DNA from: an uncultured Candidatus Saccharibacteria bacterium
GTDB lineage: Bacteria; Patescibacteriota; Minisyncoccia; Phycocordibacterales; Phycocordibacteraceae
DNA length: 64,000 nt
Reading direction: 5' to 3'
Assembly: GCA_964550425.1 (NCBI GenBank)
Contig: CAZJZB010000002.1
Location: 1,626-65,625 of the forward strand
Under the pieces are notes generated by a model. It saw only the letters and a program-made list of their open reading frames with translations. It searched no databases and had not been told where the DNA came from. The position numbers and the translations under genes are program-made. Below, one piece after another: positions 35,665-54,874 of this stretch (position 1 is the stretch's first letter; every line of letters starts with the position of its first letter).

Positions 35665-35682
35665 TGTGGCTACACACCTTCC

Positions 35683-39414: not shown

Positions 39415-39429
39415 CTGCAAGCACTCGAA

Positions 39430-41337: not shown

Positions 41338-41360
41338 GGAATAGAGGGTACTTCGGTACT

Positions 41361-41717: not shown

Positions 41718-42751
41718 AAAAATGCATCGTACTTGATCTGGATAACACACTCTGGGGAGGTGTCATTGGTGAAGACGGGTTCGACAACATCGCGCTGTCG
41801 CTCACACCACCCGGCGCGAGCTTCATCGCGTTCCAACAAGCACTTCGAGACCTTCATGACCGGGGAATCATTCTGGCCATTAACAGCAGCAATAATCCTG
41901 ACGATGCGCTACACGTGATACGCAACCACCCGAACATGATTCTCAAAGAGAATCATTTCGCCACACGGCGTATTAATTGGAACGACAAGGTTAAGAATAT
42001 GCGCGAACTTGCCACCGAGCTCAACATCGGCCTCGACTCGATGGTGTTTCTCGATGACAGTCCTCTTAATCGTGAGGCAATGCGTACTTTTTTGCCAGAA
42101 GTGGAGACGCCAGATTTGCCAGTCGACCCTTCAAAATATGTAAAGTTTCTCCATGCACTCCCTTATTTCGAGAATGAAGCCATCACTGACGAAGATAAAA
42201 TGCGTGGAAATTTATATGTTACGGAACGGCTTCGCAAAGAAACAGAGAAGCATTTCGAGAGCCGCGAAGCGTTTCTAAAAAGTTTGGGAATAGAACTCAC
42301 TATGTATGAAGACAATCCTTCATCGCTTGCGCGACTCGCGCAGCTCACCGAGAAGACGAATCAATTCAACGTAAAGAAACGGCCACTCCGTGAGGAAGAA
42401 ATTGAAGCGTACATGCGGGATAAGACACATGCAATATTCCACGCGCGCGCGATTGATCAATTTGGTGATCAGGGAATTATCGCCTTTGCGCTCGTGCGTA
42501 AAGAAAAAGAATTGTGGCATATCGAATCCCTGCTCATGAGTTGTCGAGTCATTGGGCGCAGCATTGAAGATGCTTTTATCGCAGCAATCGCACGAAGAGC
42601 CGAGAGTGAAGACGCTCACGACCTTGGTATCACCTTCGAGCCATCCGAGAAGAATGATCCTGCGCGCATAGCGGTCGAGCGTCTGTTTAAGGGAGCGCTG
42701 CGCGCTCCCGTGGTAGAATTCAAGACACCGGATTGGATCACGCTCGTATGA
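41714..42751 (+). CDS. HAD-superfamily subfamily IIIC / FkbH-like domain protein (candidate glyceryl-ACP forming enzyme)
   Basis: N-terminal CIVLDLDNTLWGGVIGEDG (FkbH/HAD-IIIC hallmark), HAD motifs and a C-terminal acyltransferase-like region. Confidence 0.7.
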   Translation: MKKCIVLDLDNTLWGGVIGEDGFDNIALSLTPPGASFIAFQQALRDLHDRGIILAINSSNNPDDALHVIRNHPNMILKENHFATRRINWNDKVKNMRELATELNIGLDSMVFLDDSPLNREAMRTFLPEVETPDLPVDPSKYVKFLHALPYFENEAITDEDKMRGNLYVTERLRKETEKHFESREAFLKSLGIELTMYEDNPSSLARLAQLTEKTNQFNVKKRPLREEEIEAYMRDKTHAIFHARAIDQFGDQGIIAFALVRKEKELWHIESLLMSCRVIGRSIEDAFIAAIARRAESEDAHDLGITFEPSEKNDPARIAVERLFKGALRAPVVEFKTPDWITLV

Positions 42752-42978
42752 AAGATTTCAACACGCTCGTAGCCGAGCATTTCAAGATAGCGGGAACGGC
42801 GATTAAAGATACCCTCAGTGCAAAGGATATCCCCGAGTGGGATTCCATGAATTATCTACTCTTCATTGCTGATGTTGAAAAAGCGTATGAGGTGTCATTC
42901 AGTATGGACGAAGTACTTGGCGCGCAAACACTTGGAGATATAAAAAAGGTGTTGCGCGCCAAATTAATCAATATATGA
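42733..42978 (+). CDS. acyl carrier protein (DltC/ACP-like, phosphopantetheine Ser in EWDSMNY)
   Basis: An 81-aa acidic helical protein with a DSM motif at the canonical ACP position. Confidence 0.7.
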   Translation: MDHARMKDFNTLVAEHFKIAGTAIKDTLSAKDIPEWDSMNYLLFIADVEKAYEVSFSMDEVLGAQTLGDIKKVLRAKLINI

Positions 42979-43400
42979 CGCCTGCTGATGACAGATCATT
43001 TATCTCTCTGCAAGTCGGTGACACATCCTCTTTTGAACGTCGTATCTCAGAGGACGATGTACGGGCATTTGCCGTACTTTCCGGCGACTATAACCCACTC
43101 CATATGGACGATGCATATGCTCGTTCCACGCCGTTTGGCGGTAGGGTTGTGCACGGTATGCTTCTCGCGGCTATGATCTCACGTCTGGTCGGAATGCAAT
43201 TGCCGGGGAAGCGGGCTCTCCTAATGAAAGAATCCCTTGAATTTAAAAAGCCGATACGTATCGGGGATATGGTGAAAGTTGAAGGAGCGGTTGTAAACGT
43301 GAGTATCGCGACGCATATCGTTGAGTTAGAGATACACATATATGCAGAGAGCATCATAGTTGTGACAGGGCATGTGCAGGTACAAGTGCGCGATGAATAA
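42975..43400 (+). CDS. MaoC-like (R)-specific hydratase/dehydratase (hotdog fold)
   Basis: LSGDYNPLHMD...VVHGML hotdog-fold signature. Confidence 0.75.
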   Translation: MTPADDRSFISLQVGDTSSFERRISEDDVRAFAVLSGDYNPLHMDDAYARSTPFGGRVVHGMLLAAMISRLVGMQLPGKRALLMKESLEFKKPIRIGDMVKVEGAVVNVSIATHIVELEIHIYAESIIVVTGHVQVQVRDE

Positions 43401-44118
43401 CATGAACACAGGCAACCATAGCAAATCTCTGGCGGTCGTTTCAGGCGGTACAGGATACCTCGGTACAGCCATAGCCACAGAACTGAAGAATGCAGGGTGG
43501 AGAGTGGTCTCGCTCTCAAAAAGCGCCTCAAAATCTAACGACGAAGTATATACGTGCGACATTGCGAATGAAAAAGATGTCCGTGAGGCGATAGCGAGCA
43601 TCACGAAAATCCATGGTCCTCTTTCAGCATGTATCCACGCAGCTTCACCGCCCTTAGAACGTATACCAATTCTTTCAGTTCCGACCGCATCGTTTGACGC
43701 GGCTCTTAACACGAATGCCCGTGCAGCGTTCCTTCTTGCGAGGGAGATGGCCGAACATATGGCGGAGAATGCTGTGTTTATTGGCATAACAACACACGCT
43801 ATTGAACCAGGCACGCTACAGCCGCACGGTGCCTATATACCGGCTAAATATGCACTCCGCGGATTTTTGCGGGCACTATCAGCAGAAACGAAAAAGTCCG
43901 GCATCCGCGTCTATGCCGTTGCGCCAGGATTTCTTCCTGGTGGATTGAATAAGGGTATACCCAAAACCATACAGGATTTTTTCGCACGTAAGAGCGGTAC
44001 CGACTCCGAATCACCAAAAGAGATTGCCACTCTCATACGAAGGCTATGCGTTGGCGATACCAAGTTTCCCCCCGGCTCTTCAATAGCTTTCCCCTCTCTC
44101 GTCGCCAGCCCTCTGTAG
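43372..44118 (+). CDS. SDR-family reductase (3-oxoacyl-ACP reductase-like)
   Basis: AVVSGGTGYLGTAIA and catalytic YIPAKYAL motifs. Start uncertain (MNNMNTG at about 43393 is possible). Confidence 0.7.
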   Translation: MCRYKCAMNNMNTGNHSKSLAVVSGGTGYLGTAIATELKNAGWRVVSLSKSASKSNDEVYTCDIANEKDVREAIASITKIHGPLSACIHAASPPLERIPILSVPTASFDAALNTNARAAFLLAREMAEHMAENAVFIGITTHAIEPGTLQPHGAYIPAKYALRGFLRALSAETKKSGIRVYAVAPGFLPGGLNKGIPKTIQDFFARKSGTDSESPKEIATLIRRLCVGDTKFPPGSSIAFPSLVASPL

Positions 44119-44216: not shown

Positions 44217-45239
44217 ATGGGTCTAAAACAGTTGAGCGGCAAGACAGTGCTTATTACCGGAGGCACCGGTTCTTTTGGCAAAAACTTTGCTAAACACATT
44301 CTCGCCAACTCGAAACTTAAAAAGTTGATTATTTTTTCTCGCGATGAATTGAAGCAGTTCCAAATGGAGGCAGAAATAAGTGATAAACGAGTGAGGTTTT
44401 TTATTGGCGATGTACGCGATCTCCCGCGGCTCGAGCGCGCCTTTGACGGGGTTGATGTTGTTATTCATGCCGCAGCGCTTAAACAAGTCCCAGCGCTTGA
44501 ATACAATCCATTTGAAGCGGTTAAGACGAATATTTTGGGAAGTCAAAATGTTATTGAGGCAGCACTTGATCAGCGCGTGCAGAAAGTCGTGCTTGTATCA
44601 ACTGATAAGGCAGCGATGCCAGTCAATCTCTATGGTTCCACCAAGCTCTGCGCAGAGAAACTTTTCATAGCAGGTAATGCCTACAGTGCTACCGGCGAGA
44701 CGTCCTTCAGTGTTGTTCGCTACGGAAATGTCATTGGCAGTCGCGGGAGTATCATCGATAAACTTATCTCCTTAAACAAAAGCGGACCGCATACGGTGCA
44801 CGTTACCGATGAGCGTATGACGCGTTTCTGGATAGACCTTGAGCAATCCTTCCGTATTGTCCTCTTTGCTCTCGAGCATATGGCGGGTGGAGAAATCTTC
44901 ATACCCAAGGCACCTGCGATGAAGATGACCGATCTCTTTGACATTCTTGCGCCCAAAGCCAAGCGCAGCGTCATTGGTATTCGTCCGGGAGAGAAGATCC
45001 ACGAAGTGCTTCTCACGAAGGAGGAGGCACGCCACGCACGAGAATTAAAAGAGTATTTCGTCGTTCTACCGGAGCACGCGAATTCTGAGAGACAACAGAA
45101 AGGTCTCCTCAAGCACCTTAAGAACGGCAAAGCACTTGAATCAGAATTTCATCTAACGAGCGATACCACTGACAATCGTTTGTCGCGCAAGACGCTCCTT
45201 CAGATAGTTGCGAATATGGAGAAGACCATAAAAAATTAA
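44217..45239 (+). CDS. UDP-N-acetylglucosamine 4,6-dehydratase, CapD/PseB/FnlA-like
   Basis: VLITGGTGSFGKNF, YGSTKLCAEKL, RYGNVIGSRGS and TRFWI signatures. Confidence 0.8.
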   Translation: MGLKQLSGKTVLITGGTGSFGKNFAKHILANSKLKKLIIFSRDELKQFQMEAEISDKRVRFFIGDVRDLPRLERAFDGVDVVIHAAALKQVPALEYNPFEAVKTNILGSQNVIEAALDQRVQKVVLVSTDKAAMPVNLYGSTKLCAEKLFIAGNAYSATGETSFSVVRYGNVIGSRGSIIDKLISLNKSGPHTVHVTDERMTRFWIDLEQSFRIVLFALEHMAGGEIFIPKAPAMKMTDLFDILAPKAKRSVIGIRPGEKIHEVLLTKEEARHARELKEYFVVLPEHANSERQQKGLLKHLKNGKALESEFHLTSDTTDNRLSRKTLLQIVANMEKTIKN

Positions 45240-46147
45240 TGGTCCCATACTCTACAGAGGACTTAAACGAGACCGACACTAAGTTGACCATAGCAGTGAA
45301 TGGTTCGCGCGGACTTCTCGGCTATACACTGCTCCGTACGCCAATGACAGGACGCGCTCCTATTGCACTTAGTGCAGACATACGCGACGCACAGGCAGTA
45401 TTCACGGAAATAGAAGCACTCAAGCCACAATTGGTAATTCATACGGCGGCAAAGACGGATGTTGCTGAGTGTGAGCGCAATCCTGAAGAAGCGAGAGCAG
45501 TGAATGTTGAGGGAACAAAAAATGTAGTAGATGCCGCACGCGCCGTTGGTGCACGTCTTATATACATATCAACAGCATCTGTATTTTCTGGGCGTGAAGG
45601 GAATTATAGAGAAAAGGATATTCCAGAGCCAATGAATGTGTATAATACAACAAAACGTGATGGAGAAGCCGCAGTATCGGCATATGAAAAAGGCATGATA
45701 CTTCGACTAAATCTTATAGGGATACATCCAGAGGGTTCGCGCGGAAAGAATTTTATGGAGTGGCTTGTTGATTCCGTCCGTGCGAATAATGATCTGACGT
45801 TATTCAACGACCAGTTTATTAATCCTCTCTCAAATTGGACGGTAGCCGCACGTATCAAAATGATAATTGAAAAAAACGTGCAAGAAAAAATCCTGCACAT
45901 CGGCAGTACAGACCGTTTATCTAAAGCAGAGATAGGGAAGTTGGTACTCGCACGATTCCAAAATTATTGCGGGAACGTAACGGAAAGAAGTATTGATAAC
46001 GTTGTCGACGGAGTAATTCGTCCGAAACAGATGTGGCTCAATGTAGATAAAGTTCTCGGGCATGAAATTACATTGCCAACACTTACAAGTGAGGTAGCGA
46101 CTATTCTTGAAAAATATAAGAAATCCGTGCTACATTCGGGCATATGA
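45239..46147 (+). CDS. NAD(P)-dependent sugar-nucleotide reductase/epimerase (RmlD-like fold)
   Basis: Rossmann N-terminus and YNTTKRDGE catalytic YxxxK. TAATG overlap with the dehydratase. Confidence 0.65.
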   Translation: MVPYSTEDLNETDTKLTIAVNGSRGLLGYTLLRTPMTGRAPIALSADIRDAQAVFTEIEALKPQLVIHTAAKTDVAECERNPEEARAVNVEGTKNVVDAARAVGARLIYISTASVFSGREGNYREKDIPEPMNVYNTTKRDGEAAVSAYEKGMILRLNLIGIHPEGSRGKNFMEWLVDSVRANNDLTLFNDQFINPLSNWTVAARIKMIIEKNVQEKILHIGSTDRLSKAEIGKLVLARFQNYCGNVTERSIDNVVDGVIRPKQMWLNVDKVLGHEITLPTLTSEVATILEKYKKSVLHSGI

Positions 46148-47865
46148 GGAAGAAAAACATTACTATTCTTGGAATTTCTTATAACTCAACGGCTGAAGCG
46201 GCAATAATCAAAAATGGCGTAGTAGTCTGCGCCATAGCCGAGGAACGTCTCAACAGGATAAAAAATTGGTATGGCATACCAAAGCGATCGATTGAGTGGG
46301 TACTCCAAGAAGCGGGTCTTACCATGAGTGATATTGATATAATCGCGACCCACGATGGGACGAATATAGAAGAAGACAGAAAACCTCTGTTTGAACGACA
46401 AGCCGAACTGATACGCGCATCAGAAACGATTGATAGCAAAAGAAAGGAAGCACAACTGAAAATATTGTGGGAGAAGTTCAAGCATGTTGAAGAGGTAATC
46501 CATCATCGACATGTTACGTACATCAAGGAACTAGAGTCATTTGGTCCGCCGGTGTACAGGGTTAGCCATCACACGGCGCATGCCGCAAGTGCGTATTTTA
46601 CGAGCGGGTGGGATAACTGCTATGTGTTAACCGCCGATGGATGGGGTAGTGACATGTCGAACGGATTGTACCAATGTCGCCAGGGCAAGCTGAAGGAAGT
46701 GAGCAATTCATCAATTATAGATTCACTCGGTTATTTTTACGGCAGTATTACCAAACATCTTGGATTCAAGCCACACAGGCACGAAGGCAAGGTGTTAGGA
46801 CTCTCTGGCCATGGCAACCCAAAGAAGTTGGAACTATTTTTTTCTAGAATGATCGGATTTGACCATACACGTAAGTCATTTCGGGGATTTATGGAGAATG
46901 GTTATTATGTACCTATTTTCGACAACCCGTGGCTCGCTGAAGCATTGCGCAACGAATCAAGAGAAGATATTGCGGCTGGAGCCCAACGAGTTCTCGAGGA
47001 TGTGATTCTTGAATATGTTAAAACAATGGTGCCGACGAAGAGTAAATTGTGCCTTGCGGGAGGAATTTTTGCTAACGTGCTACTAAACCAAAAAATCGCA
47101 TTACTACCGAAAATGGCAGAAATTTATGTGTATCCGAATATGGGCGATGGTGGACTTGCAGTGGGGAGCGCATTGTATGCATATTCACAATTAACTTCTC
47201 TGCGTCCAAAAGTTATTGACACCGTATACTGGGGGCCAGAATATTCGGCTAAAGACATAGAAAGTGTTTTGAAAAATAGCAATGTGTTATACAAAAAAAT
47301 TAAGAATATTGAAACGGTTACTGCTCGATTGCTAGCCGATGGACATGTCGTGGCGCGTTTCAACGGGAAAATGGAAAATGGTCCTCGTTCGTTAGGCAAC
47401 CGTTCGGTTCTCTACAGACCTGATGACCCATCGGTAAATGATTGGTTAAATAAAAAATTAAAGCGTACTGAATTTATGCCATTTGCACCGGTAACTCTTG
47501 TTGAACATGCTCGTGAGTGTTACCGAGGATGGAAGAAGTACGCTCGGCCGGCGACTTTCATGACCGTAACCTGTGATTGCACCAGAATTATGAAGAAAAT
47601 GTCTCCTGGAGTGGTGCACGTGGACGGCACGGCAAGACCGCAATATATAAGCCGCTCTCAAAATCAAAGTTGCTATAAGATTCTTAAAGAATTCTACAAA
47701 CGTACCGGGAATCCCAATCTAATCAATACTAGTTTCAATATGCACGAAGAACCGATCGTGTGTTCGCCATACGATGCGGTCAGAGCTTTTCTTGACTCGG
47801 ATCTGCCTTATCTTGCTATTGGAGATTATTTGGTTACTCCTAATGGTGCGGGTAAAAGTGCATGA
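46144..47865 (+). CDS. carbamoyltransferase (NodU/CmcH family)
   Basis: N-terminal ILGISYNSTAEAAI...HHTAHAASAYF and a C-terminal carbamoyltransferase domain, about 570 aa. Confidence 0.8.
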   Translation: MRKKNITILGISYNSTAEAAIIKNGVVVCAIAEERLNRIKNWYGIPKRSIEWVLQEAGLTMSDIDIIATHDGTNIEEDRKPLFERQAELIRASETIDSKRKEAQLKILWEKFKHVEEVIHHRHVTYIKELESFGPPVYRVSHHTAHAASAYFTSGWDNCYVLTADGWGSDMSNGLYQCRQGKLKEVSNSSIIDSLGYFYGSITKHLGFKPHRHEGKVLGLSGHGNPKKLELFFSRMIGFDHTRKSFRGFMENGYYVPIFDNPWLAEALRNESREDIAAGAQRVLEDVILEYVKTMVPTKSKLCLAGGIFANVLLNQKIALLPKMAEIYVYPNMGDGGLAVGSALYAYSQLTSLRPKVIDTVYWGPEYSAKDIESVLKNSNVLYKKIKNIETVTARLLADGHVVARFNGKMENGPRSLGNRSVLYRPDDPSVNDWLNKKLKRTEFMPFAPVTLVEHARECYRGWKKYARPATFMTVTCDCTRIMKKMSPGVVHVDGTARPQYISRSQNQSCYKILKEFYKRTGNPNLINTSFNMHEEPIVCSPYDAVRAFLDSDLPYLAIGDYLVTPNGAGKSA

Positions 47866-48545
47866 AAGTCTCTATCATCATTCGTGCATATAATTCCGAA
47901 ACAACACTTGCGCGGGCGATAGAGAGTGCTTTGCATCAGGACTTTCCTAGTGACCAGTATGAAGTGATTGTACTAGACGATGGTTCTACCGATGGCACCC
48001 AAACAGTTGCAAAACGTTTCGAAAAGGATAAACGCATACGCTATATTTTTCAAGAAAACAAAGGGCACATTGCAGCTGCAAACAGGGGATTTAAAGAAAG
48101 CCAAGGACTCTACGTTACCCTACTGGATGCAGACGACGAATTTCTCCCGACGCTACTTTCCACCATGATAGCTGAGTTTGAAAAAGATTCAGAAATTGAT
48201 TTGGTATATTCAGATTACAAAGAAGAATACAATGGTACGGAACGAGGCGTGAGGGTGAAGCATGTGTTAGAGACCACCGGAGCAGGAATCATATATCGTA
48301 AAGACCGTTTGGAAGAAGTCGGATTATGGAACAAGGATCTATTGTTTCCCGAATGCGACCTTATACTTCGTACCTCAAGCAGATGGAAATTCGCCTATGT
48401 ACCCGAACCGCTTTTCATATACCACAGAAGAACGAACAGTTTGACCGGTGATGGTACCTACGAGGAACGAGGAAGAGCGCAACTTATATCGCTACATCCT
48501 GATAAAATTGATGAGATCTCTCACATCCGCTCGTATGCACTATGA
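47862..48545 (+). CDS. GT2 glycosyltransferase
   Basis: Has VSIIIRAYNSE, VIVLDDGSTDGT and LDADDE (DxD) motifs. Confidence 0.8.
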   Translation: MKVSIIIRAYNSETTLARAIESALHQDFPSDQYEVIVLDDGSTDGTQTVAKRFEKDKRIRYIFQENKGHIAAANRGFKESQGLYVTLLDADDEFLPTLLSTMIAEFEKDSEIDLVYSDYKEEYNGTERGVRVKHVLETTGAGIIYRKDRLEEVGLWNKDLLFPECDLILRTSSRWKFAYVPEPLFIYHRRTNSLTGDGTYEERGRAQLISLHPDKIDEISHIRSYAL

Positions 48546-49678
48546 ATACACGACCATTACTAATTAACGAACGCATTATTGGTGCAGGCCACCCCACATT
48601 TGTTATTGCTGAAATATCGGGCAACCATCATCAGAAGTATGAAGAGGCCGAGACGCTCGTGCATGTAGCGAAGGATGCAGGCGCTGATGCAGTGAAACTT
48701 CAAACCTATACCGCCGATACAATCACACTCAATTCGGATAAAGAATATTTCAGAGTGAGCGGTAAAGATCAGCCGGATACATGGAAGGGAGAAACACTCT
48801 ACAATCTCTATACAACAGCCTATACGCCGTGGGAGTGGCAGCCGAAATTAAAAAAACTTGCTGACGACATCGGCATACTTCTCTTTTCCACTCCCTTTGA
48901 CGATACAGCAGTAGATTTTCTAGAGAAAGAGGTGGAAGTCAGTTTTTACAAAATCGCTTCGTATGAGGCAGTACATATTCCGCTACTGCGAAAAGTGGCC
49001 TCGACGGGGAAGCCGGTTATTATTTCAGTTGGTTTTGCTGACGAAGAAGAAATAGCGCTCGCTATAGAAACACTGAAGAATAATGGAGCGTCGGATGTGG
49101 TGGTTCTGCACTGCGTCACTACTTATTCGGATACGCCAAGATTTTTTAATATGAACCTTACGACTATTGATGACATCAGGAATCGTTTTAGCGTTGAAGC
49201 TGGTTTTTCTGACAATAACGCCGGCATTGTTGCGCCTATCATCGCCGCTGTGGTCCACAAGGCCGTTGCAGTAGAGAAACACATCACGCTCTCACGAGCT
49301 CTGGGAGGACCCGACGCGCGCTTCTCACTTCAGCCCGATGAACTGCGGGAGATGGTTACTCGTATACGGAAGGGCGAGAGAGAAGGAATCGAGGCAGCAC
49401 TTGAGGGTGTCGGGACTATGGCAGATGTTGCGGAAGTAAATGGGGTAGTGAACTATGGCCCGGCTTCACCACAAGAGGCGGAGAATAGAATATTCCGCCC
49501 CTCTATCTGGGTGAAGAAGGATATAAAAAAAGGCGAAACACTGACACTTGAAAATATCCGTGTCGCGCGACCCGCTCACGGGCTCGCACCAAAGTTCTTT
49601 GATGACGTACTTGGTACCGTAGCCACGCGCGATATCGAGGCGGCCACTCCTTTTTCGTGGGATCTAGTGTCTACATAG
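48542..49678 (+). CDS. nonulosonic acid synthase (NeuB/PseI/LegI family) with C-terminal SAF domain
   Basis: Has FVIAEISGNHHQ and TIM-barrel NeuB motifs, plus a C-terminal SAF/antifreeze-like domain. Confidence 0.85.
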   Translation: MNTRPLLINERIIGAGHPTFVIAEISGNHHQKYEEAETLVHVAKDAGADAVKLQTYTADTITLNSDKEYFRVSGKDQPDTWKGETLYNLYTTAYTPWEWQPKLKKLADDIGILLFSTPFDDTAVDFLEKEVEVSFYKIASYEAVHIPLLRKVASTGKPVIISVGFADEEEIALAIETLKNNGASDVVVLHCVTTYSDTPRFFNMNLTTIDDIRNRFSVEAGFSDNNAGIVAPIIAAVVHKAVAVEKHITLSRALGGPDARFSLQPDELREMVTRIRKGEREGIEAALEGVGTMADVAEVNGVVNYGPASPQEAENRIFRPSIWVKKDIKKGETLTLENIRVARPAHGLAPKFFDDVLGTVATRDIEAATPFSWDLVST

Positions 49679-49682
49679 AGCT

Positions 49683-50306
49683 ATGGAACAACTCATCGGA
49701 ATACTCAATTACGGTCTTGGTAACTTAAGTTCGATTTCTCACGCACTTACATCACTTGGCGTTGCTCACGAAATACTCACGTCTCCTAATGCCCTGACGC
49801 GGGTGAGTCATATCATCCTACCGGGCGTTGGGTCATTTAAAGAGGGAATGGCCGGTCTAGAACGTGCAGGCTTTATAGAGCCATTGCGTCAAGCGGTGTT
49901 AATCGGAAAAAAACCACTCCTCGGTATCTGTCTCGGTATGCAGTTACTAGCCGACGTAGGACTCGAGCATGGCGAGCACGCTGGGCTCTCTTTTCTAGCT
50001 GGTCGTGTCGAGCGCATACCCGCGGAAGTACACAAATTACCCCTGCCACACATAGGGTGGAATTCCGTACATTTCTCAGAAGGAAAAAGAATAACAAGAG
50101 GATTGACGCAAGATACTGACTTCTACTTTGTGCACAGTTATCATTTTCTTCCTACTGAAGAAGAAGTTATTGCTGGTGTCACTGAATATGGTATTCAGAT
50201 TGCCGCGATCGTGGAGAAGGGCAATATATTTGGTACGCAATTTCACCCTGAGAAGAGCGGCGAGGAAGGCCTCAAGATTCTTAAGAATTTCTCAGAAATA
50301 GTATAA
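49683..50306 (+). CDS. glutamine amidotransferase, HisH-like (WbuY-type)
   Basis: IGILNYGLGNL, GICLGMQLL (catalytic Cys) and HSYHF triad residues. Confidence 0.8.
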   Translation: MEQLIGILNYGLGNLSSISHALTSLGVAHEILTSPNALTRVSHIILPGVGSFKEGMAGLERAGFIEPLRQAVLIGKKPLLGICLGMQLLADVGLEHGEHAGLSFLAGRVERIPAEVHKLPLPHIGWNSVHFSEGKRITRGLTQDTDFYFVHSYHFLPTEEEVIAGVTEYGIQIAAIVEKGNIFGTQFHPEKSGEEGLKILKNFSEIV

Positions 50307-50308
50307 GT

Positions 50309-51127
50309 ATGCTTAAGCCCCGTCTCATACCCGTCCTCCTTTTTAAAAACGGCGTTCTGGTGCGCAGTCAGCATTTCGATTTCTTTCAATCGACCGGCGA
50401 TCCTATAGGACAGGTGGAGCGATTTACACAGTGGAAAGCAGATGAGCTTATCTATCTTGATATTTCGCGCGTTGATATCTACAACGCGCAGGGAACGATG
50501 CAAAATATTGGCTCCACGACCTCGGGCAAGGATACCGGCGCAGCTGCCTCTCACAATTTTATTGAAGTGATACAGGCCGTCGCTCAGAAATGCTTCGTAC
50601 CGCTTACGGTGGGCGGCAAGATACGCACGATAGACGATATCCGGGTACGTCTCAAAAGCGGGGCGGATAAAGTCAGCATTAACAGCATGGCGTTTGAGAA
50701 TCCGGCCTTTATTACTGAAGCGGCACAGGTCTTCGGCAGCCAATGCATCGTCGTCTCTATCGACGTACGGAAATCAGTGAATGGATGGGACGTATATTCG
50801 CACAACGGAGAACGCGCGACTGGACGACAGGCAGTAGCGTGGGCTGTCGAGGCCGCCGAACGTGGAGCAGGCGAGATACTGCTTGGTTCTATAGATTGTG
50901 ATGGAGCGGGAGACGGGTATGACACTGAACTCATAAACGCGGTCGCACACGCCGTTGCAGTGCCAGTTATCGCGCTTGGTGGAGTAGGCACGTTCGAACA
51001 CTTTGTAGAAGGGCTCCATGCGGGTGCAAGCGCGGTCGCTGCCGCTAACATATTCCACTTCACCGAACAAAGCATCATTAATGCGAAACGCTACCTGCAA
51101 CACTCCGGCGTTGCTGTGAGATTATAG
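50309..51127 (+). CDS. imidazole-glycerol-phosphate synthase cyclase-like subunit, HisF-like (WbuZ-type)
   Basis: LIPVLLFKNGVLVRS and LTVGGKIRT (HisF TIM barrel). Confidence 0.8.
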   Translation: MLKPRLIPVLLFKNGVLVRSQHFDFFQSTGDPIGQVERFTQWKADELIYLDISRVDIYNAQGTMQNIGSTTSGKDTGAAASHNFIEVIQAVAQKCFVPLTVGGKIRTIDDIRVRLKSGADKVSINSMAFENPAFITEAAQVFGSQCIVVSIDVRKSVNGWDVYSHNGERATGRQAVAWAVEAAERGAGEILLGSIDCDGAGDGYDTELINAVAHAVAVPVIALGGVGTFEHFVEGLHAGASAVAAANIFHFTEQSIINAKRYLQHSGVAVRL

Positions 51128-51147
51128 AGGGGAGTATACTCACGCAT

Positions 51148-52374
51148 ATGACCCGCGCCTCTCCAGAGTTACGTCCGTCAGACATGCCGGCAATGATCTA
51201 TTGCACGCGTTGCACCTACCCAATTATCGCGGTCAATTTAACGATTGGAACGAATGGCGTCTGCAGCGGTTGTCGCGTACATGACGAAAAGGAGGCACTC
51301 GACTGGTCCGCACGCGAGGAAGAATTTAAAAAGCTGCTGTACTCATATCGCACAGACGGCAAGAACTACGATTGCATCATTCCTGTATCCGGCGGCAAGG
51401 ACAGCCATTTTCAGGTTTGGTATATCAAGGAAAAGCTCGGGTTGAATCCGCTTCTCGTGACGTATTACACGCACAACTACACTCCTACCGCTGAGGCAAA
51501 TTTACGCAATATAAGCAAGCATTTTGGCGTCGACCATTATATTTTTACGCCGAGTTACAAGATGATTCAGAAAATGAATCTTGCCGGTTTCGAAATGATG
51601 GGTGACATGAGTTGGCACTTCCATGCTGGCGTGAATACCTTGCCGTTCCAAATGGCAGTGAAGTTCAATGTGCCTCTTGTCATCTACGGCGAGCATGGAT
51701 TTATGGATTTAGCAGGACAATTCCAATTTGCCGATCGGCCGGAGTTTACGGCGCGTTACCGCAAAGAGCATCAGCTGCGCGGATATGATTGGCAAGATTT
51801 TATCGGCAAAGAAGGCCTTACCGAAAAAGACCTACTATGGGCGCAATACCCCTCAGATAAAGAAATAGCTCAAGTGGGGGTGCGCGGTATTTATATGGGT
51901 GTCTATGTCTACTGGGATGCTAACAAGCATGGTAAAAAAGTAGAAGAAGAATTTGGATTTAAACCCAATCCCGAGCCATTTGAGCGCACCTATCGCCGCG
52001 CATCAAATGTGGACGACATCCATGAGAACGGCATCAAGGACTATCTGAAATTTGTTAAGTTCGGCTACGGCCGAGGGACCGACCACACCGCAAAAGATAT
52101 TCGCCTTGGCAGTATGACCCGCGACGAGGGCATCAAGCTCGTGCGCCAGTATGATGCTGTCGTCCCGCGCAAATCACTCGAACATTTCTTGACGATGACC
52201 GGTATGAGTGAAGAAGAGTTTTGGCCGATTACCGACTCCTTCCATGATCCGCGGGTGTGGTGGATACGGGGCGGGGAGTGGTGGAAAGATACACTATGGG
52301 GGACTCCGGAGCCATTTGGCAAGGTCCATTTGTCTCCCGATAAGCAAAAAATGTATCGTCACGTCATAACATAG
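51148..52374 (+). CDS. N-acetyl sugar amidotransferase (WbuX/PseA-like PP-loop ATP pyrophosphatase)
   Basis: Has an N-terminal Cys cluster CTRCTYP...CSGC and the PP-loop motif IPVSGGKDS. It is co-located with the HisH/HisF-like pair. Confidence 0.75.
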   Translation: MTRASPELRPSDMPAMIYCTRCTYPIIAVNLTIGTNGVCSGCRVHDEKEALDWSAREEEFKKLLYSYRTDGKNYDCIIPVSGGKDSHFQVWYIKEKLGLNPLLVTYYTHNYTPTAEANLRNISKHFGVDHYIFTPSYKMIQKMNLAGFEMMGDMSWHFHAGVNTLPFQMAVKFNVPLVIYGEHGFMDLAGQFQFADRPEFTARYRKEHQLRGYDWQDFIGKEGLTEKDLLWAQYPSDKEIAQVGVRGIYMGVYVYWDANKHGKKVEEEFGFKPNPEPFERTYRRASNVDDIHENGIKDYLKFVKFGYGRGTDHTAKDIRLGSMTRDEGIKLVRQYDAVVPRKSLEHFLTMTGMSEEEFWPITDSFHDPRVWWIRGGEWWKDTLWGTPEPFGKVHLSPDKQKMYRHVIT

Positions 52375-52375
52375 T

Positions 52376-53056
52376 ATGAATCAGGCACCGATTGTACTCG
52401 TTATTATTCCCATCAAGGAACGCTCAACGCGATTGCCAGGGAAGAATCTCAAAGACCTCTGCGGTAAACCAATGATGGCGTATCCGATTGAGGCGGCAAA
52501 AGGTGCGAAGGGAGTGAGTCGTGTCATCGTCACCACAGAATCAGAGAAGATAAAAGAAATAGCGCTCAAGTACGGAGCGGAGGTACCTTTTTTGCGGCCA
52601 ATGGAGCTCACGGAAGATGCAGTGACTTCACAGCAGGTGTTAGTGCATGCGCTCGATGAGCTCAAGAAACTTGAGGACTACGAACCCGACTATGTACTCC
52701 TCCTTTATCCGACCTCGCCACTTCTCTCGCGAGAGAGAATAGAGCAGGCTATCGCACTCGCCATTGAGAAGAATGCTGATTCAGTTATCAGCGGCCATTA
52801 TGACAAAGGGCATTACTGGCTACCCGAAGGCGATGCATGGAAACGTCTCTACCCGACTAAGCTAGTGAACAGCCAGTACCAGAGGCCTCTTTTTGTAGAA
52901 AATGGGGCCCTCTATATGACACGTGCTTCTATTGTGCGCACTCAGATAGTCGCCAACCAGGCACAAGTGCTTTTGATGAAGCCAGATGAAAACGTGGATG
53001 TGGATTATCCCGAAGATTTCATAAAAGCGGAGTCGATGCTTAAGAACGGGGCATAG
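52376..53056 (+). CDS. CMP-nonulosonic acid synthetase (acylneuraminate cytidylyltransferase family)
   Basis: VLVIIPIKERSTRLPGKNL N-terminus of the CTP_transf_3 family. Confidence 0.8.
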   Translation: MNQAPIVLVIIPIKERSTRLPGKNLKDLCGKPMMAYPIEAAKGAKGVSRVIVTTESEKIKEIALKYGAEVPFLRPMELTEDAVTSQQVLVHALDELKKLEDYEPDYVLLLYPTSPLLSRERIEQAIALAIEKNADSVISGHYDKGHYWLPEGDAWKRLYPTKLVNSQYQRPLFVENGALYMTRASIVRTQIVANQAQVLLMKPDENVDVDYPEDFIKAESMLKNGA

Positions 53057-53098: not shown

Positions 53099-54874
53099 AT
53101 GAAAGTCACGATATTGACGCTCTGGCGTATATTCAATCGTTATCGCTGGCATATCGCTGCGCTTGTTGTGCTAAGTTTCTTGAGCGCCATACTGGAAGGC
53201 ATCGGTATTAACTCCGCTATTCCGCTGATCTCGTTTTTCACTGGCGCAAACAGTGCACCGACCGATGTCATCACGCATGCGATCAAAGCGCTGTTCGATT
53301 TCCTACGTATACCTTTCAGCTTCCGGTATCTCCTCGGCTTCATACTCGGACTCTTCATCCTGCGCGCCGTATCAATGGTGGTATTCGGCTATATCCGTGG
53401 ATGGATAAGTGCCGACTTTCTCGGCAAAGAGAGCGAGGATGTGCTTCGTCGGACGCTCCTGTCGTCGTGGCCTTTTCTTCTGAAACAGAGAATAGGAACC
53501 GTGCACAACACGCTCGTGCGAGACGTCCAGCAAACCTGCGGACTTCTCGGGATTATCGCGCAAGTCGTACAGTCCTTCAGCGGATTCCTGATGTATCTCA
53601 TCGTGGCTGTAAACATTTCGCCAACGATGACGTTCTACACGCTCGGCGGCGGTGCATTCATTCTGCTCATAGTGAGGCCACTTATCCGACGTACGCGGAA
53701 CATCGGAGAACGTGCAGCCGGAGTGGAGAAACAATTCTCGCAATTCCTGAGTGAACACATTATCGGCATGAAGTCCATCAAGGCGGCCGGTGCTGAACGC
53801 GCCGCGCTCGTTGATGGTACCGCGCACATACAAGTATTACGCACGTTCTCGATTCGTCAGGCATTTGTGCAGTCCGTCAGCTCTAGCGTCTTCCAGCCGG
53901 CCATCCTTGTCCTTGTCGTTGTGCTTTTTATACTGACGTATAATTCGCCCGGATTCAACATTATTTCATTCGCAGCGGCACTCTATCTCATTCAAAAGAT
54001 ATTCACGTATCTTGAGTCCGGCCAGAATGCACTCATCGGCATGAGCCAATTCTTGCCGTACGCGCAGAATGTGTACAACTTCAAGAAAATGCTTTCGGAA
54101 CATCGCGAACAGCCGGCGAAAGAAGGGAAGCCGTTCGTTTTCAATAATTCGCTTTCCTTCGACCACGTAACGTTCTCGTATGCCGGATCGCCATCCGTAC
54201 TAAAGGATGTATCATTCTCGATTGCCAAAGGAGAAACCATCGGTCTCATCGGTCCGTCGGGGGCGGGCAAGACCTCCATTGCCGACCTCCTCTTACGTCT
54301 ATTCCGCCCCACCGAGGGCAATGTCTATTTGGACGGACTGTCGGCGGATGATATCAACGTGGCGGAATGGAGGAAGCATTTCGGATATGTTTCCCAGGAC
54401 GTGTTTCTCTTCAACGGCACGATTGAAGAGAATATCCGATTCTATCGCTCCGAACTATCCTTGGACGATATTACCGAAGCGGCAAAACAGGCCAATATCT
54501 ATGACTTCATAATTGGATTGCCGGACGGTTTTCAGACGTTCACCGGTGATAACGGTGTGATGCTCTCGGGAGGTCAGCGCCAACGCATCGTGCTTGCGCG
54601 TGCGCTCGCAGGCAGACCTTCTCTTCTCATTCTTGACGAAGCGACAAGCGCGCTTGATTCGGCTTCGGAGAAGCTCATACAGGAGTCCATCCATAACTTG
54701 CACGGCAACGTGACGGTATGTATCATCGCGCACCGTTTGAGTACCATTGAGCATTCTGATCGCCTGCTTGTTCTTGATCACGGGAAGATTATCGAAGAAG
54801 GTACGCCGAGCGAGCTTCTGGCACGGCCGGATTCCTACTTTTCAAAACATCACGGGTCTCACAAATCGGTATAG
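53099..54874 (+). CDS. ABC exporter, fused permease/ATPase (MsbA-like)
   Basis: Six TM helices plus an NBD with GPSGAGKTS (Walker A), LSGGQRQR and ILDEATSALD. Confidence 0.85.
   Translation: MKVTILTLWRIFNRYRWHIAALVVLSFLSAILEGIGINSAIPLISFFTGANSAPTDVITHAIKALFDFLRIPFSFRYLLGFILGLFILRAVSMVVFGYIRGWISADFLGKESEDVLRRTLLSSWPFLLKQRIGTVHNTLVRDVQQTCGLLGIIAQVVQSFSGFLMYLIVAVNISPTMTFYTLGGGAFILLIVRPLIRRTRNIGERAAGVEKQFSQFLSEHIIGMKSIKAAGAERAALVDGTAHIQVLRTFSIRQAFVQSVSSSVFQPAILVLVVVLFILTYNSPGFNIISFAAALYLIQKIFTYLESGQNALIGMSQFLPYAQNVYNFKKMLSEHREQPAKEGKPFVFNNSLSFDHVTFSYAGSPSVLKDVSFSIAKGETIGLIGPSGAGKTSIADLLLRLFRPTEGNVYLDGLSADDINVAEWRKHFGYVSQDVFLFNGTIEENIRFYRSELSLDDITEAAKQANIYDFIIGLPDGFQTFTGDNGVMLSGGQRQRIVLARALAGRPSLLILDEATSALDSASEKLIQESIHNLHGNVTVCIIAHRLSTIEHSDRLLVLDHGKIIEEGTPSELLARPDSYFSKHHGSHKSV

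Follow-up and report, generated by a model that had tools for sequence, protein, structure and literature searches.

A pseudaminic-acid-type locus in which reduction and O-carbamoylation may take the place of amination and N-acetylation

Introduction

How might a bacterium build a sialic-acid-like sugar from a locus in which neither the aminotransferase nor the N-acetyltransferase of such pathways can be recognized? The question is raised by a cluster of sialic-acid-like sugar genes from an uncultured groundwater bacterium, which lies in the 64-kb stretch of DNA analyzed here (the window). A sequence-only reading of this DNA had listed the genes and offered three explanations for the gap: the pathway is non-canonical, it draws on genes encoded elsewhere, or the cluster serves two different sugars. 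Here, we compare the cluster with related loci and propose a pathway and a product.

The gene cluster

The cluster (44217-53056) comprises nine intact, tightly packed genes, all on the + strand, with stops and starts that overlap or nearly abut in most cases. Their order is PseB, an RmlD-like reductase, a NodU/TobZ-type carbamoyltransferase, a short GT2, PseI, the HisH/HisF/WbuX trio and a PseF-like cytidylyltransferase. The open reading frames and coordinates agree exactly with those of the sequence-only reading, and the Pfam and NCBIfam models bear out its gene list.

The first gene (44217..45239, +) belongs to the PseB family and is predicted to encode an inverting UDP-GlcNAc 4,6-dehydratase. 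It passes the TIGR03589 equivalog model (440 bits, cut-off 407.75), its best solved relative is H. pylori FlaA1 (PseB; PDB 2GN4, 353 bits), the STDKA...YGSTK motifs are kept, and it is 83-85% identical to PseB of the related loci L004 and L086. Known PseB enzymes, from which its activity is taken, convert UDP-GlcNAc to UDP-2-acetamido-2,6-dideoxy-beta-L-arabino-hexos-4-ulose. An FnlA identity was rejected (250 bits, cut-off 730), and neither FnlB nor FnlC types are present in the window; the earlier suggestion of an L-FucNAm sugar made by an FnlA/WbuXYZ set is thus not sustained.

The second gene (45239..46147, +) encodes an RmlD-like SDR reductase (RmlD_sub_bind, 166 bits) with a YxxxK motif, which scores about 80 bits against RmlDs in the PDB and 152 bits against the rmlD model, under its cut-off of 224 and with an alignment that starts at residue 17. 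The third (46144..47865, +) encodes a carbamoyltransferase of the NodU/CmcH/TobZ family (Carbam_trans_N, 154 bits; Carbam_trans_C, 189 bits; PDB 7XB6, 217 bits; TobZ 3VEN, 203 bits). The fourth (47862..48545, +) encodes a short soluble GT2 of 227 aa with DDG and DADD motifs (Glycos_transf_2, 120 bits).

The synthase (48542..49678, +) carries a SAF domain, is without an N-terminal GNAT (PseH) domain and is a PseI equivalog (TIGR03586, 377 bits against a cut-off of 340; NeuB model, 250 against 400) rather than the KDO8P/DAHP synthase that the sequence-only reading had considered. Its closest relative is the PseI part of a GNAT::PseI fusion (P0002, 88% identity). The acetamidino-forming trio consists of a HisH-like glutaminase subunit of the WbuY type (49683..50306, +; TIGR01855, 224 bits), a HisF-like cyclase/ammonia-channel subunit of the WbuZ type (50309..51127, +; WbuZ, 264 bits against 300; HisF, 236 bits; both slightly under cut-off; AglZ/HisF2, 212 bits) and a WbuX/PseA-type PP-loop N-acetyl sugar amidotransferase with an SGGKDS motif (51148..52374, +; TIGR03573, 343 bits against 203), which are 90, 94 and 91% identical, respectively, to the copies in locus L003. 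The last gene (52376..53056, +) encodes a PseF-like CMP-nonulosonate synthetase (CTP_transf_3, 77 bits; PseF model, 139 bits, under the 206 cut-off) that shares 87.5% identity with its counterpart in L003, a canonical locus.

The missing enzymes

Pfam or NCBIfam scans of all window open reading frames of at least 150 aa detected no DegT, GNAT/hexapeptide, Epimerase_2 or PseG match. A six-frame tblastn search of the 64 kb with 19 queries from related loci (PseC/DegT, GNAT/PseH-like, PseG-like, formyltransferase, class-III aminotransferase and DUF218) likewise returned no aminotransferase, acyltransferase or PseG-type match. The exceptions were a DUF218 gene (19096-19854, 3e-16) and a stretch of 15 residues, encoded at the very start of the reductase gene, that matches PseC (E 0.009); all other matches were short, with E > 0.1. 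These searches uphold the earlier remark that PseC, PseH, PseG and NeuC types are absent from the 64 kb. The same types are also absent from the 10 kb past the window's 3' end, which encodes Obg, GatB, an HTH protein and a giant protein. The search covered one contig of the genome, and the ENA contig extends only ~0.8 kb upstream of the window.

An exchanged module

Contigs of close relatives, whose flanking genes show 85-90% nucleotide identity to the window, have the order PseB-PseC-DUF218-GNAT::PseI-HisH-HisF-WbuX-PseF. The window is 79-90% identical in nucleotide sequence to two of them, L003 and L004, over PseB and again from PseI through the ABC exporter, and has the reductase, carbamoyltransferase and GT2 where these loci have PseC (an equivalog, 477 bits against a cut-off of 423.5), DUF218 and the GNAT part of the GNAT::PseI fusion. 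Comparative evidence thus points to a module swap rather than an omission, with the reductase and carbamoyltransferase predicted to stand in for the aminotransferase and N-acetyltransferase. Since the relatives hold PseC and PseH exactly where these two genes sit, genes elsewhere need not be invoked; of the explanations offered earlier, the evidence favors a non-canonical pathway.

The reductase itself appears to preserve a trace of the exchange. Its N-terminus, MVPYSTEDLNETDTK, matches that of PseC, MIPYSTQDINEADIK, at 10 of 15 positions, and its homologs in other phyla are without this PseC-like extension. Codons 1-15 (45239-45283) are therefore best read as a relic of the pseC 5' end, a fossil of the swap.

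The arrangement recurs in L086, from another aquifer metagenome (same gene order, carbamoyltransferase 89% identical), and in L173 (same gene order, reductase 80% identical). The window pseI is a mosaic, L086-like in codons 1-18 and L003-like in the rest; hisH is likewise L003-like, and the genes upstream of pseI are L086-like. Because of this mosaic, and because the module is accompanied in L086 by a PseI that shares only 48% identity with that of the window, specificity of the window PseI for the proposed new substrate is an assumption. The high identity (87-94%) of PseI, WbuX, HisF and PseF to their counterparts in a canonical-Pse relative is most easily explained by a near-isosteric substrate.

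The short GT2 belongs to a tight family of ~28 proteins of 217-235 aa, the majority of which come from the candidate phyla radiation. In 4/4 candidate-phyla-radiation contexts its gene directly precedes those for an N-acyltransferase and NeuB/PseI, and these loci have no PseG. The family occupies the position of PseG beside PseI in canonical loci as well, and the window protein may be a non-orthologous replacement for this UDP-sugar hydrolase.

The carbamoyltransferase across phyla

In a neighbor-joining tree, the window carbamoyltransferase falls in a 54-member clade spanning many bacterial and archaeal phyla, which holds 40/40 of the NeuB-linked and 35/36 of the reductase-linked loci; among the 107 carbamoyltransferases outside it, none is NeuB-linked and one is reductase-linked. 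Grouping loci by identity to the window protein (at least 46%, n=37; at most 43%, n=86) gives the same picture: the reductase is adjacent in 23/37 versus 1/86, while 31/37 versus 0/86 have a NeuB-family gene no more than 10 kb away and 20/37 versus 0/86 a PseG-like gene at such a distance. DegT genes lie within 10 kb in 5/37 versus 5/86, and a class-III aminotransferase occurs in 15 of the 37 high-identity loci. The three DegT-family N-termini read (L010-L012, of the five DegT-bearing loci) are without the PseC-type motif. The clade is tied to the reductase, often through overlapping or abutting genes, and not to glycosyltransferases. Loci such as L011, L090 and L091 have the order PseB-(PseG)-reductase-carbamoyltransferase-NeuB.

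The window reductase in turn clusters with carbamoyltransferase-adjacent reductases, apart from true RmlDs. Its closest homologs without the relic (65% identity) are in L171 and L172, PseB/NeuB loci that hold the reductase and a DegT-type (not PseC-equivalog) aminotransferase without a carbamoyltransferase, so this type of reductase does not in every case take the place of amination.

Neighboring genes

Contiguously upstream lies what appears to be a carrier-protein acyl-donor module (41334..44118, all +): a PPTase (41334-41717; ACPS, 53 bits), FkbH (41714-42751; TIGR01686, 296 bits), a carrier protein (42748-42978; PP-binding, 20.9 bits against 20.8), a MaoC-domain dehydratase (42975-43400) and an SDR (43372-44118; adh_short). 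It seems to travel with the PseB-reductase-carbamoyltransferase genes, being syntenic in L086 (~81% nucleotide identity) and in the same order in L173. A gene at 39370..41337 (+) travels with them as well; its C-terminal region matches the BFO_1060-family glycosyltransferase model (28.5 bits, E 8e-7), TIGR04396 and, weakly, GT-B C-terminal Pfam models, which tentatively suggests a nonulosonic-acid transferase. BFO_1060 is the T. forsythia homolog of a nonulosonic-acid-derivative transferase (PMC5420450). This module and candidate transferase had been missed by the sequence-only reading, as had the replacement role of the reductase and carbamoyltransferase and the position of the GT2 in the PseG slot. 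Downstream, an MsbA/PglK-like ABC exporter (53099..54874, +; ABC_membrane and ABC_tran; HepA, MsbA and PglK models at 233-346 bits, all under cut-off) follows PseF, as in L003, L086, L171 and L172, and is probably the flippase for a lipid-linked glycan.

Proposed pathway

We propose, with a probability of roughly 55%, that the locus encodes a pathway of the pseudaminic-acid type, but with reduction and O-carbamoylation at C4 instead of amination and N-acetylation. PseB would convert UDP-GlcNAc to the 4-keto sugar, which the RmlD-like reductase would reduce to a UDP-6-deoxy-L-HexNAc, most simply 6-deoxy-L-AltNAc. The NodU/TobZ-type enzyme, using carbamoyl phosphate and ATP, would then carbamoylate the new 4-OH, giving a 4-O-carbamoyl group that is isosteric with 4-NHAc, the substituent expected from PseC and PseH. 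UDP removal, the weakest step, would probably fall to the short GT2, or else to a DUF218 protein. PseI and PEP would yield 5-acetamido-7-O-carbamoyl-3,5,9-trideoxy-non-2-ulosonic acid, HisH/HisF/WbuX would convert its sole N-acetyl, at N5, to acetamidino, and the PseF-like enzyme would form the CMP-sugar; the steps from carbamoylation to amidine formation are given in one possible order. The BFO_1060-like transferase, the ABC flippase and a Wzy_C/TPR protein would place the sugar on the surface glycan. The predicted product is 5-acetamidino-7-O-carbamoyl-3,5,9-trideoxy-nonulosonic acid, with the carbamoyl position suggested by gene linkage and the logic of the swap. PseF accepts varied N5 and N7 substituents (PMC11040635), and F. 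nucleatum ATCC 25586 contains L-6dAltNAc and 5-acetimidoylamino-3,5,9-trideoxy-non-2-ulosonic acid (PMC13014188, PMC7371886).

Alternative explanations

The product might instead be a 7-hydroxy (3,5,9-trideoxy) 5-acetamidino acid as in F. nucleatum 25586, with the carbamoyl group elsewhere, either on the nonulosonic acid (at O4 or O8) or on a different sugar of the glycan, added post-assembly or at the CMP-sugar stage. We regard this as unlikely. The uncarbamoylated acid has precedent, NodU/TobZ relatives modify varied hydroxyls on finished glycosides, and L171 and L172 combine PseB, reductase and NeuB without a carbamoyltransferase, an arrangement in which the synthase can apparently be supplied with the reduced sugar on its own. 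However, genes of the carbamoyltransferase clade show linkage to the reductase and not to glycosyltransferases; O4 and O8 exist in ordinary Pse too, yet so few of the high-identity loci (5/37) have a DegT-family gene nearby; and the close match of PseI and PseF (87-88% identity) to their counterparts in a canonical locus is easier to reconcile with an isosteric substituent at C7 than with a free hydroxyl.

It is rather improbable that two sugars are made, namely a UDP-activated carbamoylated 6-deoxy-L-HexNAc (from PseB, reductase and carbamoyltransferase) transferred by the GT2, and a Pse5Am7Ac-type sugar (from PseI, WbuXYZ and PseF) for which other parts of the genome would provide PseC, PseH and PseG. 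Both L-6dAltNAc and a nonulosonic acid occur in the F. nucleatum O-chain, GT2 enzymes are normally transferases, and a single contig was searched. Against this, the relatives keep PseC/PseH inside the locus at the exact swapped position, the reductase retains PseC start codons, genomes of the candidate phyla radiation are small, canonical loci too have a member of the short GT2 family in the PseG slot, and other phyla place reductase and carbamoyltransferase between PseB/PseG and NeuB with no PseC. A non-functional mosaic or strain-chimeric assembly, from which no coherent pathway could be inferred, is very improbable: the metagenomic origin and the shift of pseI from L086-like to L003-like near codon 18 would be consistent with one, but the nine frames are intact and tightly packed, the same proteins are on record from NCBI, ENA and Logan assemblies, and L086 independently has the reductase-carbamoyltransferase-GT2-PseI order. 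Both flanks, moreover, are 10-20% divergent from L086 and L003, which marks the window as a third lineage rather than a splice of the two.

Comparison with known systems

Reductase and carbamoyltransferase genes in the aminotransferase and N-acetyltransferase slots of relatives thus lead us to predict, for the reduction-carbamoylation pathway, an undescribed nine-carbon sugar bearing an O-carbamoyl in place of an N-acetyl group; our search of the literature turned up no carbamoylated nonulosonic acid. The nearest chemical precedent is the 5-acetimidoylamino-3,5,9-trideoxy acid of Fusobacterium nucleatum, which is uncarbamoylated and as such a precedent for the 7-hydroxy route. Among the related loci, L003 and L004 have PseC and GNAT (PseH) where the window has the reductase and the carbamoyltransferase.

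Gene content of the nonulosonate locus

The locus consists of nine close-packed open reading frames (ORFs) on the plus strand between positions 44217 and 53056, in agreement with the coordinates and gene list drawn up from the sequence alone. Families were assigned with Pfam and NCBIfam models, and a protein is called an equivalog where its score lies above the NCBIfam cut-off. The first gene (44217-45239) encodes a PseB equivalog (TIGR03589, 440 vs. 407.75 bits; FnlA, 250 vs. 730 bits), whose top solved relative is Helicobacter pylori PseB/FlaA1 (2GN4, 353 bits) and in which the catalytic STDKA...YxxxK region is conserved. It is followed by an RmlD_sub_bind reductase (45239-46147) that scores 152 vs. 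224 bits with the rmlD model and ~80 bits against RmlD structures, and by a carbamoyltransferase (46144-47865) with Carbam_trans_N and Carbam_trans_C domains (154 and 189 bits). The latter matches the 7XB6, TobZ, NovN and GdmN structures at ~190-217 bits; its residues 16-565 align to 7XB6 over near full length, and TobZ aligns in two stretches (203 bits). A glycosyltransferase of family GT2 (47862-48545, 227 aa, 120 bits) precedes a PseI equivalog with a SAF domain (48542-49678; PseI, 377 vs. 340 bits; NeuB, 250 vs. 400 bits). The remaining genes encode HisH (49683-50306, 224 vs. 105 bits), a WbuZ/HisF protein slightly under its cut-off (50309-51127, 264 vs. 300 bits), a WbuX protein with the SGGKDS motif (51148-52374, 343 vs. 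203 bits) and a PseF-like cytidylyltransferase (52376-53056). This last protein lies under the cut-off of the PseF model (139 vs. 206 bits) and is 87.5% identical to the product of the gene at the PseF position of L003, a related locus of canonical type.

The sequence-only reading had held that the window carries no aminotransferase or N-acetyltransferase, and both ORF family scans and six-frame tblastn bear this out. Family scans of all window ORFs of at least 150 aa found no DegT, GNAT, hexapeptide acetyltransferase, Epimerase_2 (NeuC) or PseG protein. The six-frame tblastn search used 19 queries from related loci (PseC/DegT, PseH-like GNAT, PseG-like, formyltransferase, class-III aminotransferase and DUF218 types) and returned no aminotransferase, acyltransferase or PseG-type match in the window except one 15-residue PseC match; TIGR03590/PseG-like sequences matched neither the window ORFs nor the six-frame translation. 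The sole strong match was that of a DUF218 query to a gene on the minus strand (19096-19854); by the family scans the window also has a weak second DUF218 gene at 36474-37388. As to whether the canonical genes lie just outside the window, a case that the same reading had raised, the 10 kb past the 3′ end (75.8-kb ENA contig ERZ27284378, k139_522600) encode Obg, GatB, an HTH protein and a giant protein and none of the missing Pse genes, while the contig ends ~0.8 kb upstream; the absence of PseC, PseH and PseG thus covers one contig of the genome. Just past the window (L002 16969-22532) lies a gene whose product, 2317 aa or longer, has no recorded domain.

A module swap relative to canonical loci

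The closest PseI relative among the matches listed (P0002, 88% identity) is a GNAT::PseI fusion with the GNAT domain at its N-terminus. The gene order of the related loci L003-L005 is PseB, a 47-aa ORF, PseC, DUF218, GNAT::PseI, HisH, HisF, WbuX, cytidylyltransferase and ABC exporter, and their DegT protein is a PseC equivalog (477 vs. 423.5 bits). The pseB gene of the window is 79% identical in nucleotide sequence to that of L004, and the stretch that runs from the pseI core up to and including the ABC exporter is 85-90% identical to L003. Between these shared blocks the window has 3.4 kb (reductase, carbamoyltransferase and GT2) vs. 2.5 kb in the relatives (PseC, DUF218 and the GNAT domain).

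On this alignment the gap is a module swap, and two junction details favour a swap over coincidence. At the left junction, the reductase N-terminus (MVPYSTEDLNETDTK) matches the L003 PseC N-terminus (MIPYSTQDINEADIK) at 10 of 15 positions, and the DNA is similar too. The RmlD homology of the reductase does not begin until residue 17, where the GxxGxxG motif lies, and the PseC-like leader is absent from the reductase homologs of other phyla. Because the leader matches PseC and the RmlD homology begins behind it, the reductase must have been joined in frame to the 5′ end of pseC, and this 15-residue relic, fused to the reductase, is all that the window retains of PseC. At the right junction, which lies in pseI and removes the GNAT domain cleanly, codons 1-18 are like the allele of a further relative, L086, and the remainder is L003-like.

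L086 comes from a Hainich aquifer metagenome, the same source as L003, and carries FkbH, a carrier protein, MaoC, SDR, PseB, reductase, carbamoyltransferase, GT2, PseI, HisH, HisF, WbuX, PseF and ABC exporter in that order. Its carbamoyltransferase is 89% identical to that of the window and its other proteins are 82-92% identical, except for HisH (68%) and PseI (48%), the latter being a strong PseI equivalog in its own right (481 bits). A third sample yielded L173, with rmlBACD, methyltransferases, the FkbH module, PseB, the reductase and a truncated next gene. From the comparison of L003/L004, L086 and L173 we therefore distinguish three versions of the locus, namely the canonical L003/L004 type, the L086 type and that of the window, which combines an L086-type upstream half with L003-type pseI and hisH. 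Relatives of the locus come from 0.1 µm-filtered groundwater samples, and the named sources of homologs are Kaiserbacteria, Minisyncoccia, Paceibacterota and Wildermuthbacteria; on these grounds the organism probably belongs to the candidate phyla radiation (Patescibacteria). A Fic/RhuM-domain gene (L003 7481-8446) lies between the cytidylyltransferase and the ABC exporter of L003 and is absent from the window and from L086.

The reductase-carbamoyltransferase pair across phyla

A carbamoyltransferase search of species-representative genomes and metagenomes gave at least 160 loci, the neighbours of which were scored by tblastn. We compared loci whose carbamoyltransferase is at least 46% identical to that of the window (37 with a usable upstream flank) with those at 43% or less (86 loci). 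Among the loci so sampled, the reductase is adjacent in 23 of 37 vs. 1 of 86 and within 10 kb in 29 of 37 vs. 2 of 86. A NeuB-family gene lies within the same distance in 31/37 vs. 0/86, a PseG-like gene in 20/37 vs. 0/86 and DegT in 5/37 vs. 5/86; a class-III aminotransferase is present in 15 of the 37 high-identity loci. A neighbor-joining tree places the window in a clade of 54 sequences to which every one of the 40 NeuB-linked loci and 35 of the 36 reductase-linked loci belong (14 of the 54 members have no NeuB-family gene in the retrieved DNA), vs. no NeuB-linked and one reductase-linked locus for the 107 sequences outside it. The clade ranges over Methanosarcinales, Thaumarchaeota, Omnitrophota, Nitrospinota, Rhodospirillales, Methyloligellaceae, Thermodesulfobacteriota, Pelagibacteraceae and the candidate phyla radiation. 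Gene order varies, from PseB-reductase-carbamoyltransferase-NeuB-HisH-HisF-WbuX...CMP-transferase-PseG-PseI (L011) to PseB-PseG-reductase-carbamoyltransferase-NeuB-CMP-transferase (L090, L091) and NeuB-reductase-carbamoyltransferase in a marine group. The PseG-like neighbours of the cross-phylum loci score under the TIGR03590 cut-off (113 vs. 153.55 bits), and the DegT genes of L010-L012 are without the PseC-type N-terminus. In a tree, the window reductase and the carbamoyltransferase-adjacent reductases split from bona fide RmlDs. By linkage and phylogeny, the reductase and carbamoyltransferase are a conserved nonulosonate module across phyla.

Among the matches listed, the nearest reductase homologs without the PseC-derived leader (65% identical) belong to L171 and L172, whose gene order is PseB, GFO oxidoreductase, DegT, a 309-aa protein, reductase, NeuB, PpgS-type GT2, CMP-transferase, ABC exporter, Wzy_C and MurB. 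Neither has a carbamoyltransferase, and their DegT lies below the PseC equivalog cut-off (239 vs. 423.5 bits). These gene sets suggest that carbamoylation may not be needed for use of the reduced sugar, and that reduction can occur alongside some amination. Both loci occupy the same chromosomal site as the others (ABC exporter, Wzy_C and MurB downstream); the oxidoreductase is of the GFO/IDH/MocA type, the 309-aa protein has a faint Epimerase_2 match, the synthase is under both the NeuB and PseI cut-offs, and L171 additionally has WbuX, an amidase and a GNAT protein.

Many clade loci (L008, L009, L011, L015-L017, L090, L091, L103, L117 and L120) hold two NeuB-family synthases. One of them, often directly after the carbamoyltransferase, fits NeuB better (in L011, 248 vs. 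210 bits for PseI, both under cut-off), and the other is more PseI-like. A recurrent companion set of nonulosonate loci (L006, L007, L009, L012, L015-L017, L166 and L169; e.g., L012 1981-8049 and 14635-15981) comprises a class-III aminotransferase resembling glutamate-1-semialdehyde aminomutase (PRK06209, 405 bits), a KidO-like aldo-keto reductase, an SpsF-like cytidylyltransferase, a small GNAT protein and a DUF4910-like protein; this set is absent from the window.

Alternative readings of the locus

Several other readings of these genes have to be weighed. The sequence-only reading had offered an L-FucNAm product of an FnlA/WbuXYZ set, and a WbuXYZ trio is indeed present; the scores of the dehydratase with the PseB and FnlA models rule this out, as does the absence of FnlB and FnlC, the window having no WbcJ/FnlB-type or Epimerase_2 match. 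The reductase could also be simply the RmlD of the locus, but the window has a full rmlBACD set at 33364-36522, from which the reductase groups apart, and this reading is likewise ruled out. That the carbamoyltransferase is a generic neighbour is excluded by linkage confined to one clade.

Two further possibilities were considered. The missing genes might be present as small or unannotated ORFs, which the six-frame tblastn and the family scans of ORFs of at least 150 aa rule out. A synthase specialised for a new substrate might accompany the module; this is not supported by L086, where the module goes with a very typical PseI, nor by the window, where PseI is 88% identical to the allele of a canonical locus.

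Proposed pathway and product

The most far-reaching reading, to which we assign a probability of about 40%, is that the reductase and carbamoyltransferase define an unrecognised and widespread class of nonulosonic acids. These “pseudo-pseudaminic” acids would be 7-O-carbamoyl-3,5,9-trideoxy compounds whose O-carbamoyl group mimics the 7-N-acetyl group isosterically. Their makers would be bacteria and archaea of the candidate phyla radiation, Omnitrophota, Nitrospinota, Alphaproteobacteria (including Pelagibacteraceae), Thermodesulfobacteriota, Thaumarchaeota and Methanosarcinales. In that case the window would show the swap from PseC/PseH to the new route in progress, with the short GT2 as a GT-A-fold counterpart to PseG, a GT-B hydrolase.

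Gene content, family membership, the swap and the linkage are observed; for the enzymatic steps, family knowledge suggests the following. PseB would give the UDP-4-keto-6-deoxy-L-arabino sugar, the RmlD-type SDR would reduce it at C4 and the TobZ/NodU-type enzyme would O-carbamoylate the product via carbamoyl-AMP. In our main reading, the acceptor would be the hydroxyl made by the reductase, i.e., O4 of the hexose and O7 of the nonulosonic acid, a site suggested by linkage only. PseI would then condense the sugar with PEP, WbuXYZ would amidinate the N-acetyl group and PseF would form the CMP-sugar. The O-CO-NH2 group is isosteric with NH-CO-CH3. This would account for the ability of PseI, HisF, WbuX and PseF, at 87-94% identity to their counterparts in the canonical locus, to serve both versions, and for the specific replacement of PseC and PseH by the reductase-carbamoyltransferase pair. 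Since a single N-acetyl group remains, the amidino group is expected on N5, as in the Fusobacterium nucleatum acid and Tannerella forsythia Pse5Am7Gra. The predicted product is 5-acetamidino-7-O-carbamoyl-3,5,9-trideoxy-non-2-ulosonic acid (335.1329 Da; CMP form, [M-H]- 639.1669). The calculated monoisotopic mass is 336.1169 for the 5-acetamido-7-O-carbamoyl acid, 293.1111 and 292.1271 for the corresponding 7-OH acids (CMP forms, 597.1451 and 596.1611) and 334.1376 for canonical Pse5Ac7Ac (CMP form, 638.1716). PseF tolerates varied N5 and N7 substituents (PMC11040635).

The weakest step of the proposed pathway is UDP release. The short GT2, which sits in the PseG slot of the window, belongs to a tight family of 217-235 aa found mostly in the candidate phyla radiation. 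In all four candidate-phyla-radiation contexts examined it stands directly before GNAT or formyltransferase and NeuB/PseI, with no PseG; the one archaeal homolog found (Haladaptatus) is in an unrelated context. DUF218 is an alternative candidate for this step, judged from its gene neighbourhoods and fusions: it is free-standing between PseC and PseI in L003 (1763-2377) and fused elsewhere to PseI (P0007) or to a DegT aminotransferase (L166 5319-7106), and L170 has both the short GT2 and DUF218 (9584-10210). In these bacteria DUF218 turns up with Pse genes again and again, and substitution for PseG is one possibility.

Surroundings of the locus

Upstream of the locus, and syntenic in L086 and L173, are genes for a PPTase, FkbH, a carrier protein, a MaoC dehydratase and an SDR (41334-44118; FkbH, 296 bits; carrier protein, 76 aa), and further upstream lies a 655-aa protein (39370-41337) weakly similar to the T. 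forsythia BFO_1060 family of nonulosonate transferases. On the downstream side, a PglK/MsbA-like ABC exporter is followed by genes for an AlgX-like SGNH protein and a DltB-like MBOAT protein (both within 54884-57450; TIGR04091, 159 bits for the latter), a Wzy_C+TPR protein and MurB. These surroundings suggest, by family resemblance, a lipid-linked glycan that would be capped with the nonulosonate, flipped and passed to an acceptor at the surface, and that would receive O-acyl groups extracellularly from the carrier protein. The regions 41334-44118 and 54884-57450 together resemble Dlt/Alg-style O-acylation of an exported glycan, with a glycerate-derived group (possibly lactyl or glyceroyl) on the carrier protein. 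The Pse locus of the Kaiserbacteria contig L166 is flanked by FkbH and PPTase too. These nonulosonate loci of the candidate phyla radiation share an ending in which MurB comes after the Wzy_C (O-antigen-ligase-like) + TPR protein of ~700-800 aa (window 57447-59675; L167, L169, L170 and L171); the Wzy_C protein may be a PglL-type O-oligosaccharyltransferase or a cell-wall-acceptor ligase in bacteria thought to be without an outer membrane.

The glycan island of the window spans ~50 kb, which is very large for a probably small genome. It includes a tandem array of six GT4 glycosyltransferase genes with one GT47-like gene (9419-17086), several FkbM-type methyltransferases after the GT4 run (17083-26122) and, beside the rmlBACD set, sugar C-methyltransferases at 24881-26122 (minus strand) and 37385-38629. 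Elsewhere in the window are a MurD-like Mur ligase with a C-terminal VanY/peptidase M15 D-Ala-D-Ala carboxypeptidase domain (2177-3931), followed by a second Mur ligase (3928-5196), as well as an RnlA-toxin-like DBD protein (720-1286), a TraG/VirD4-like coupling protein (6114-7952) and a secreted lamin-tail and PKD protein (7961-9379).

Significance

Nonulosonic acids cap surface glycans and influence recognition by phages, predators and immune lectins. To our knowledge, their known diversity is almost wholly a matter of the N-acyl groups that a 5,7-diamino skeleton carries. If our main reading is true, there would be a second general route to C7 decoration, reduction followed by O-carbamoylation, encoded in many uncultured lineages that include abundant marine and groundwater groups. 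It would offer a genetic explanation for 7-hydroxy “trideoxy” acids like the F. nucleatum sugar, and its 4-ketoreductase and sugar-nucleotide O-carbamoyltransferase would be new enzymes for the synthesis of Pse analogues. The three versions of the locus, the PseC start codons on the reductase and the breakpoint in pseI make a clear example of recombination exchanging glycan-pathway modules in candidate-phyla-radiation populations.

Comparison with known systems

Neither a carbamoylated nonulosonic acid nor a pathway of this kind came up in a full-text literature search, and because the coverage was incomplete we call them undescribed only provisionally. With the canonical CMP-Pse pathway of Helicobacter and Campylobacter (PseB, PseC, PseH, PseG, PseI and PseF) the window shares PseB and PseI equivalogs, a PseF-like enzyme and the overall logic in which UDP-GlcNAc is converted to a 6-deoxy-L-hexosamine, condensed with PEP and activated with CMP. 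It differs in having an RmlD-like reductase, a carbamoyltransferase and a short GT2 in place of PseC, PseH and PseG, and the predicted product has oxygen rather than nitrogen at C7. Despite its Pse-like logic, the locus is thus not a member of the canonical Pse type, because three of the features that define that type (PseC, PseH and PseG) are missing.

Like the WbuX/WbuY/WbuZ, PseA and AglXYZ systems, the window combines a PP-loop WbuX-family enzyme with HisH-like and HisF-like subunits, of which WbuX passes the NCBIfam cut-off and WbuZ/HisF falls just under its equivalog cut-offs. This trio is predicted to turn a sugar N-acetyl group into N-acetimidoyl, and its substrate would be a single N-acetyl (N5) if our main reading is right. 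The carbamoyltransferase has the two-domain Kae1-like and YrdC-like architecture of the NodU/NolO/CmcH/TobZ/GdmN O-carbamoyltransferases and matches the TobZ, GdmN and NovN structures at about 200 bits. It falls well under the NodU equivalog cut-off (122 vs. 1000 bits), and its clade is separate from that group, being tied to PseB, the reductase and NeuB rather than to Nod-factor or antibiotic clusters. The WbvB/WbvR route leads to UDP-L-RhaNAc and L-QuiNAc, and the FnlA/B/C route to L-FucNAc. Both resemble the window in using a Polysacc_synt_2 4,6-dehydratase and then a reductase on a UDP-4-keto-6-deoxy-HexNAc, whereas in the window the dehydratase is PseB-type, there is no 2-epimerase and the pair is embedded among Pse genes.

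The protein O-glycosylation system of T. forsythia (Pse5Am7Gra/Leg) likewise has a 5-acetamidino nonulosonic acid with an unusual 7-substituent. The window has a BFO_1060-family transferase-like protein nearby (the weakly similar 655-aa protein, 28.5 bits) and an FkbH module able to make a glyceryl-carrier-protein. Unlike the acid predicted for the window, the T. forsythia sugar has a 5,7-diamino skeleton that bears an N-glyceroyl group.

The nearest chemical precedent is the O-chain of F. nucleatum 25586, which contains L-6dAltNAc and 5-acetimidoylamino-3,5,9-trideoxy-non-2-ulosonic acid (Vinogradov et al. 2017, in PMC13014188 and PMC7371886). No carbamoyl group is reported for it, the configuration is tentatively L-glycero-L-gluco, and the literature searched gave no description of the genes for this acid. 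Compared by sugar chemistry alone, the window gene content (PseB, a 4-reductase candidate, PseI and WbuXYZ) fits a 7-hydroxy route. The F. nucleatum acid carries 7-OH rather than 7-N together with 5-acetamidino (PMC13014188, PMC7371886), and it co-occurs with 6-deoxy-L-AltNAc, the sugar that PseB and a 4-reductase would give.
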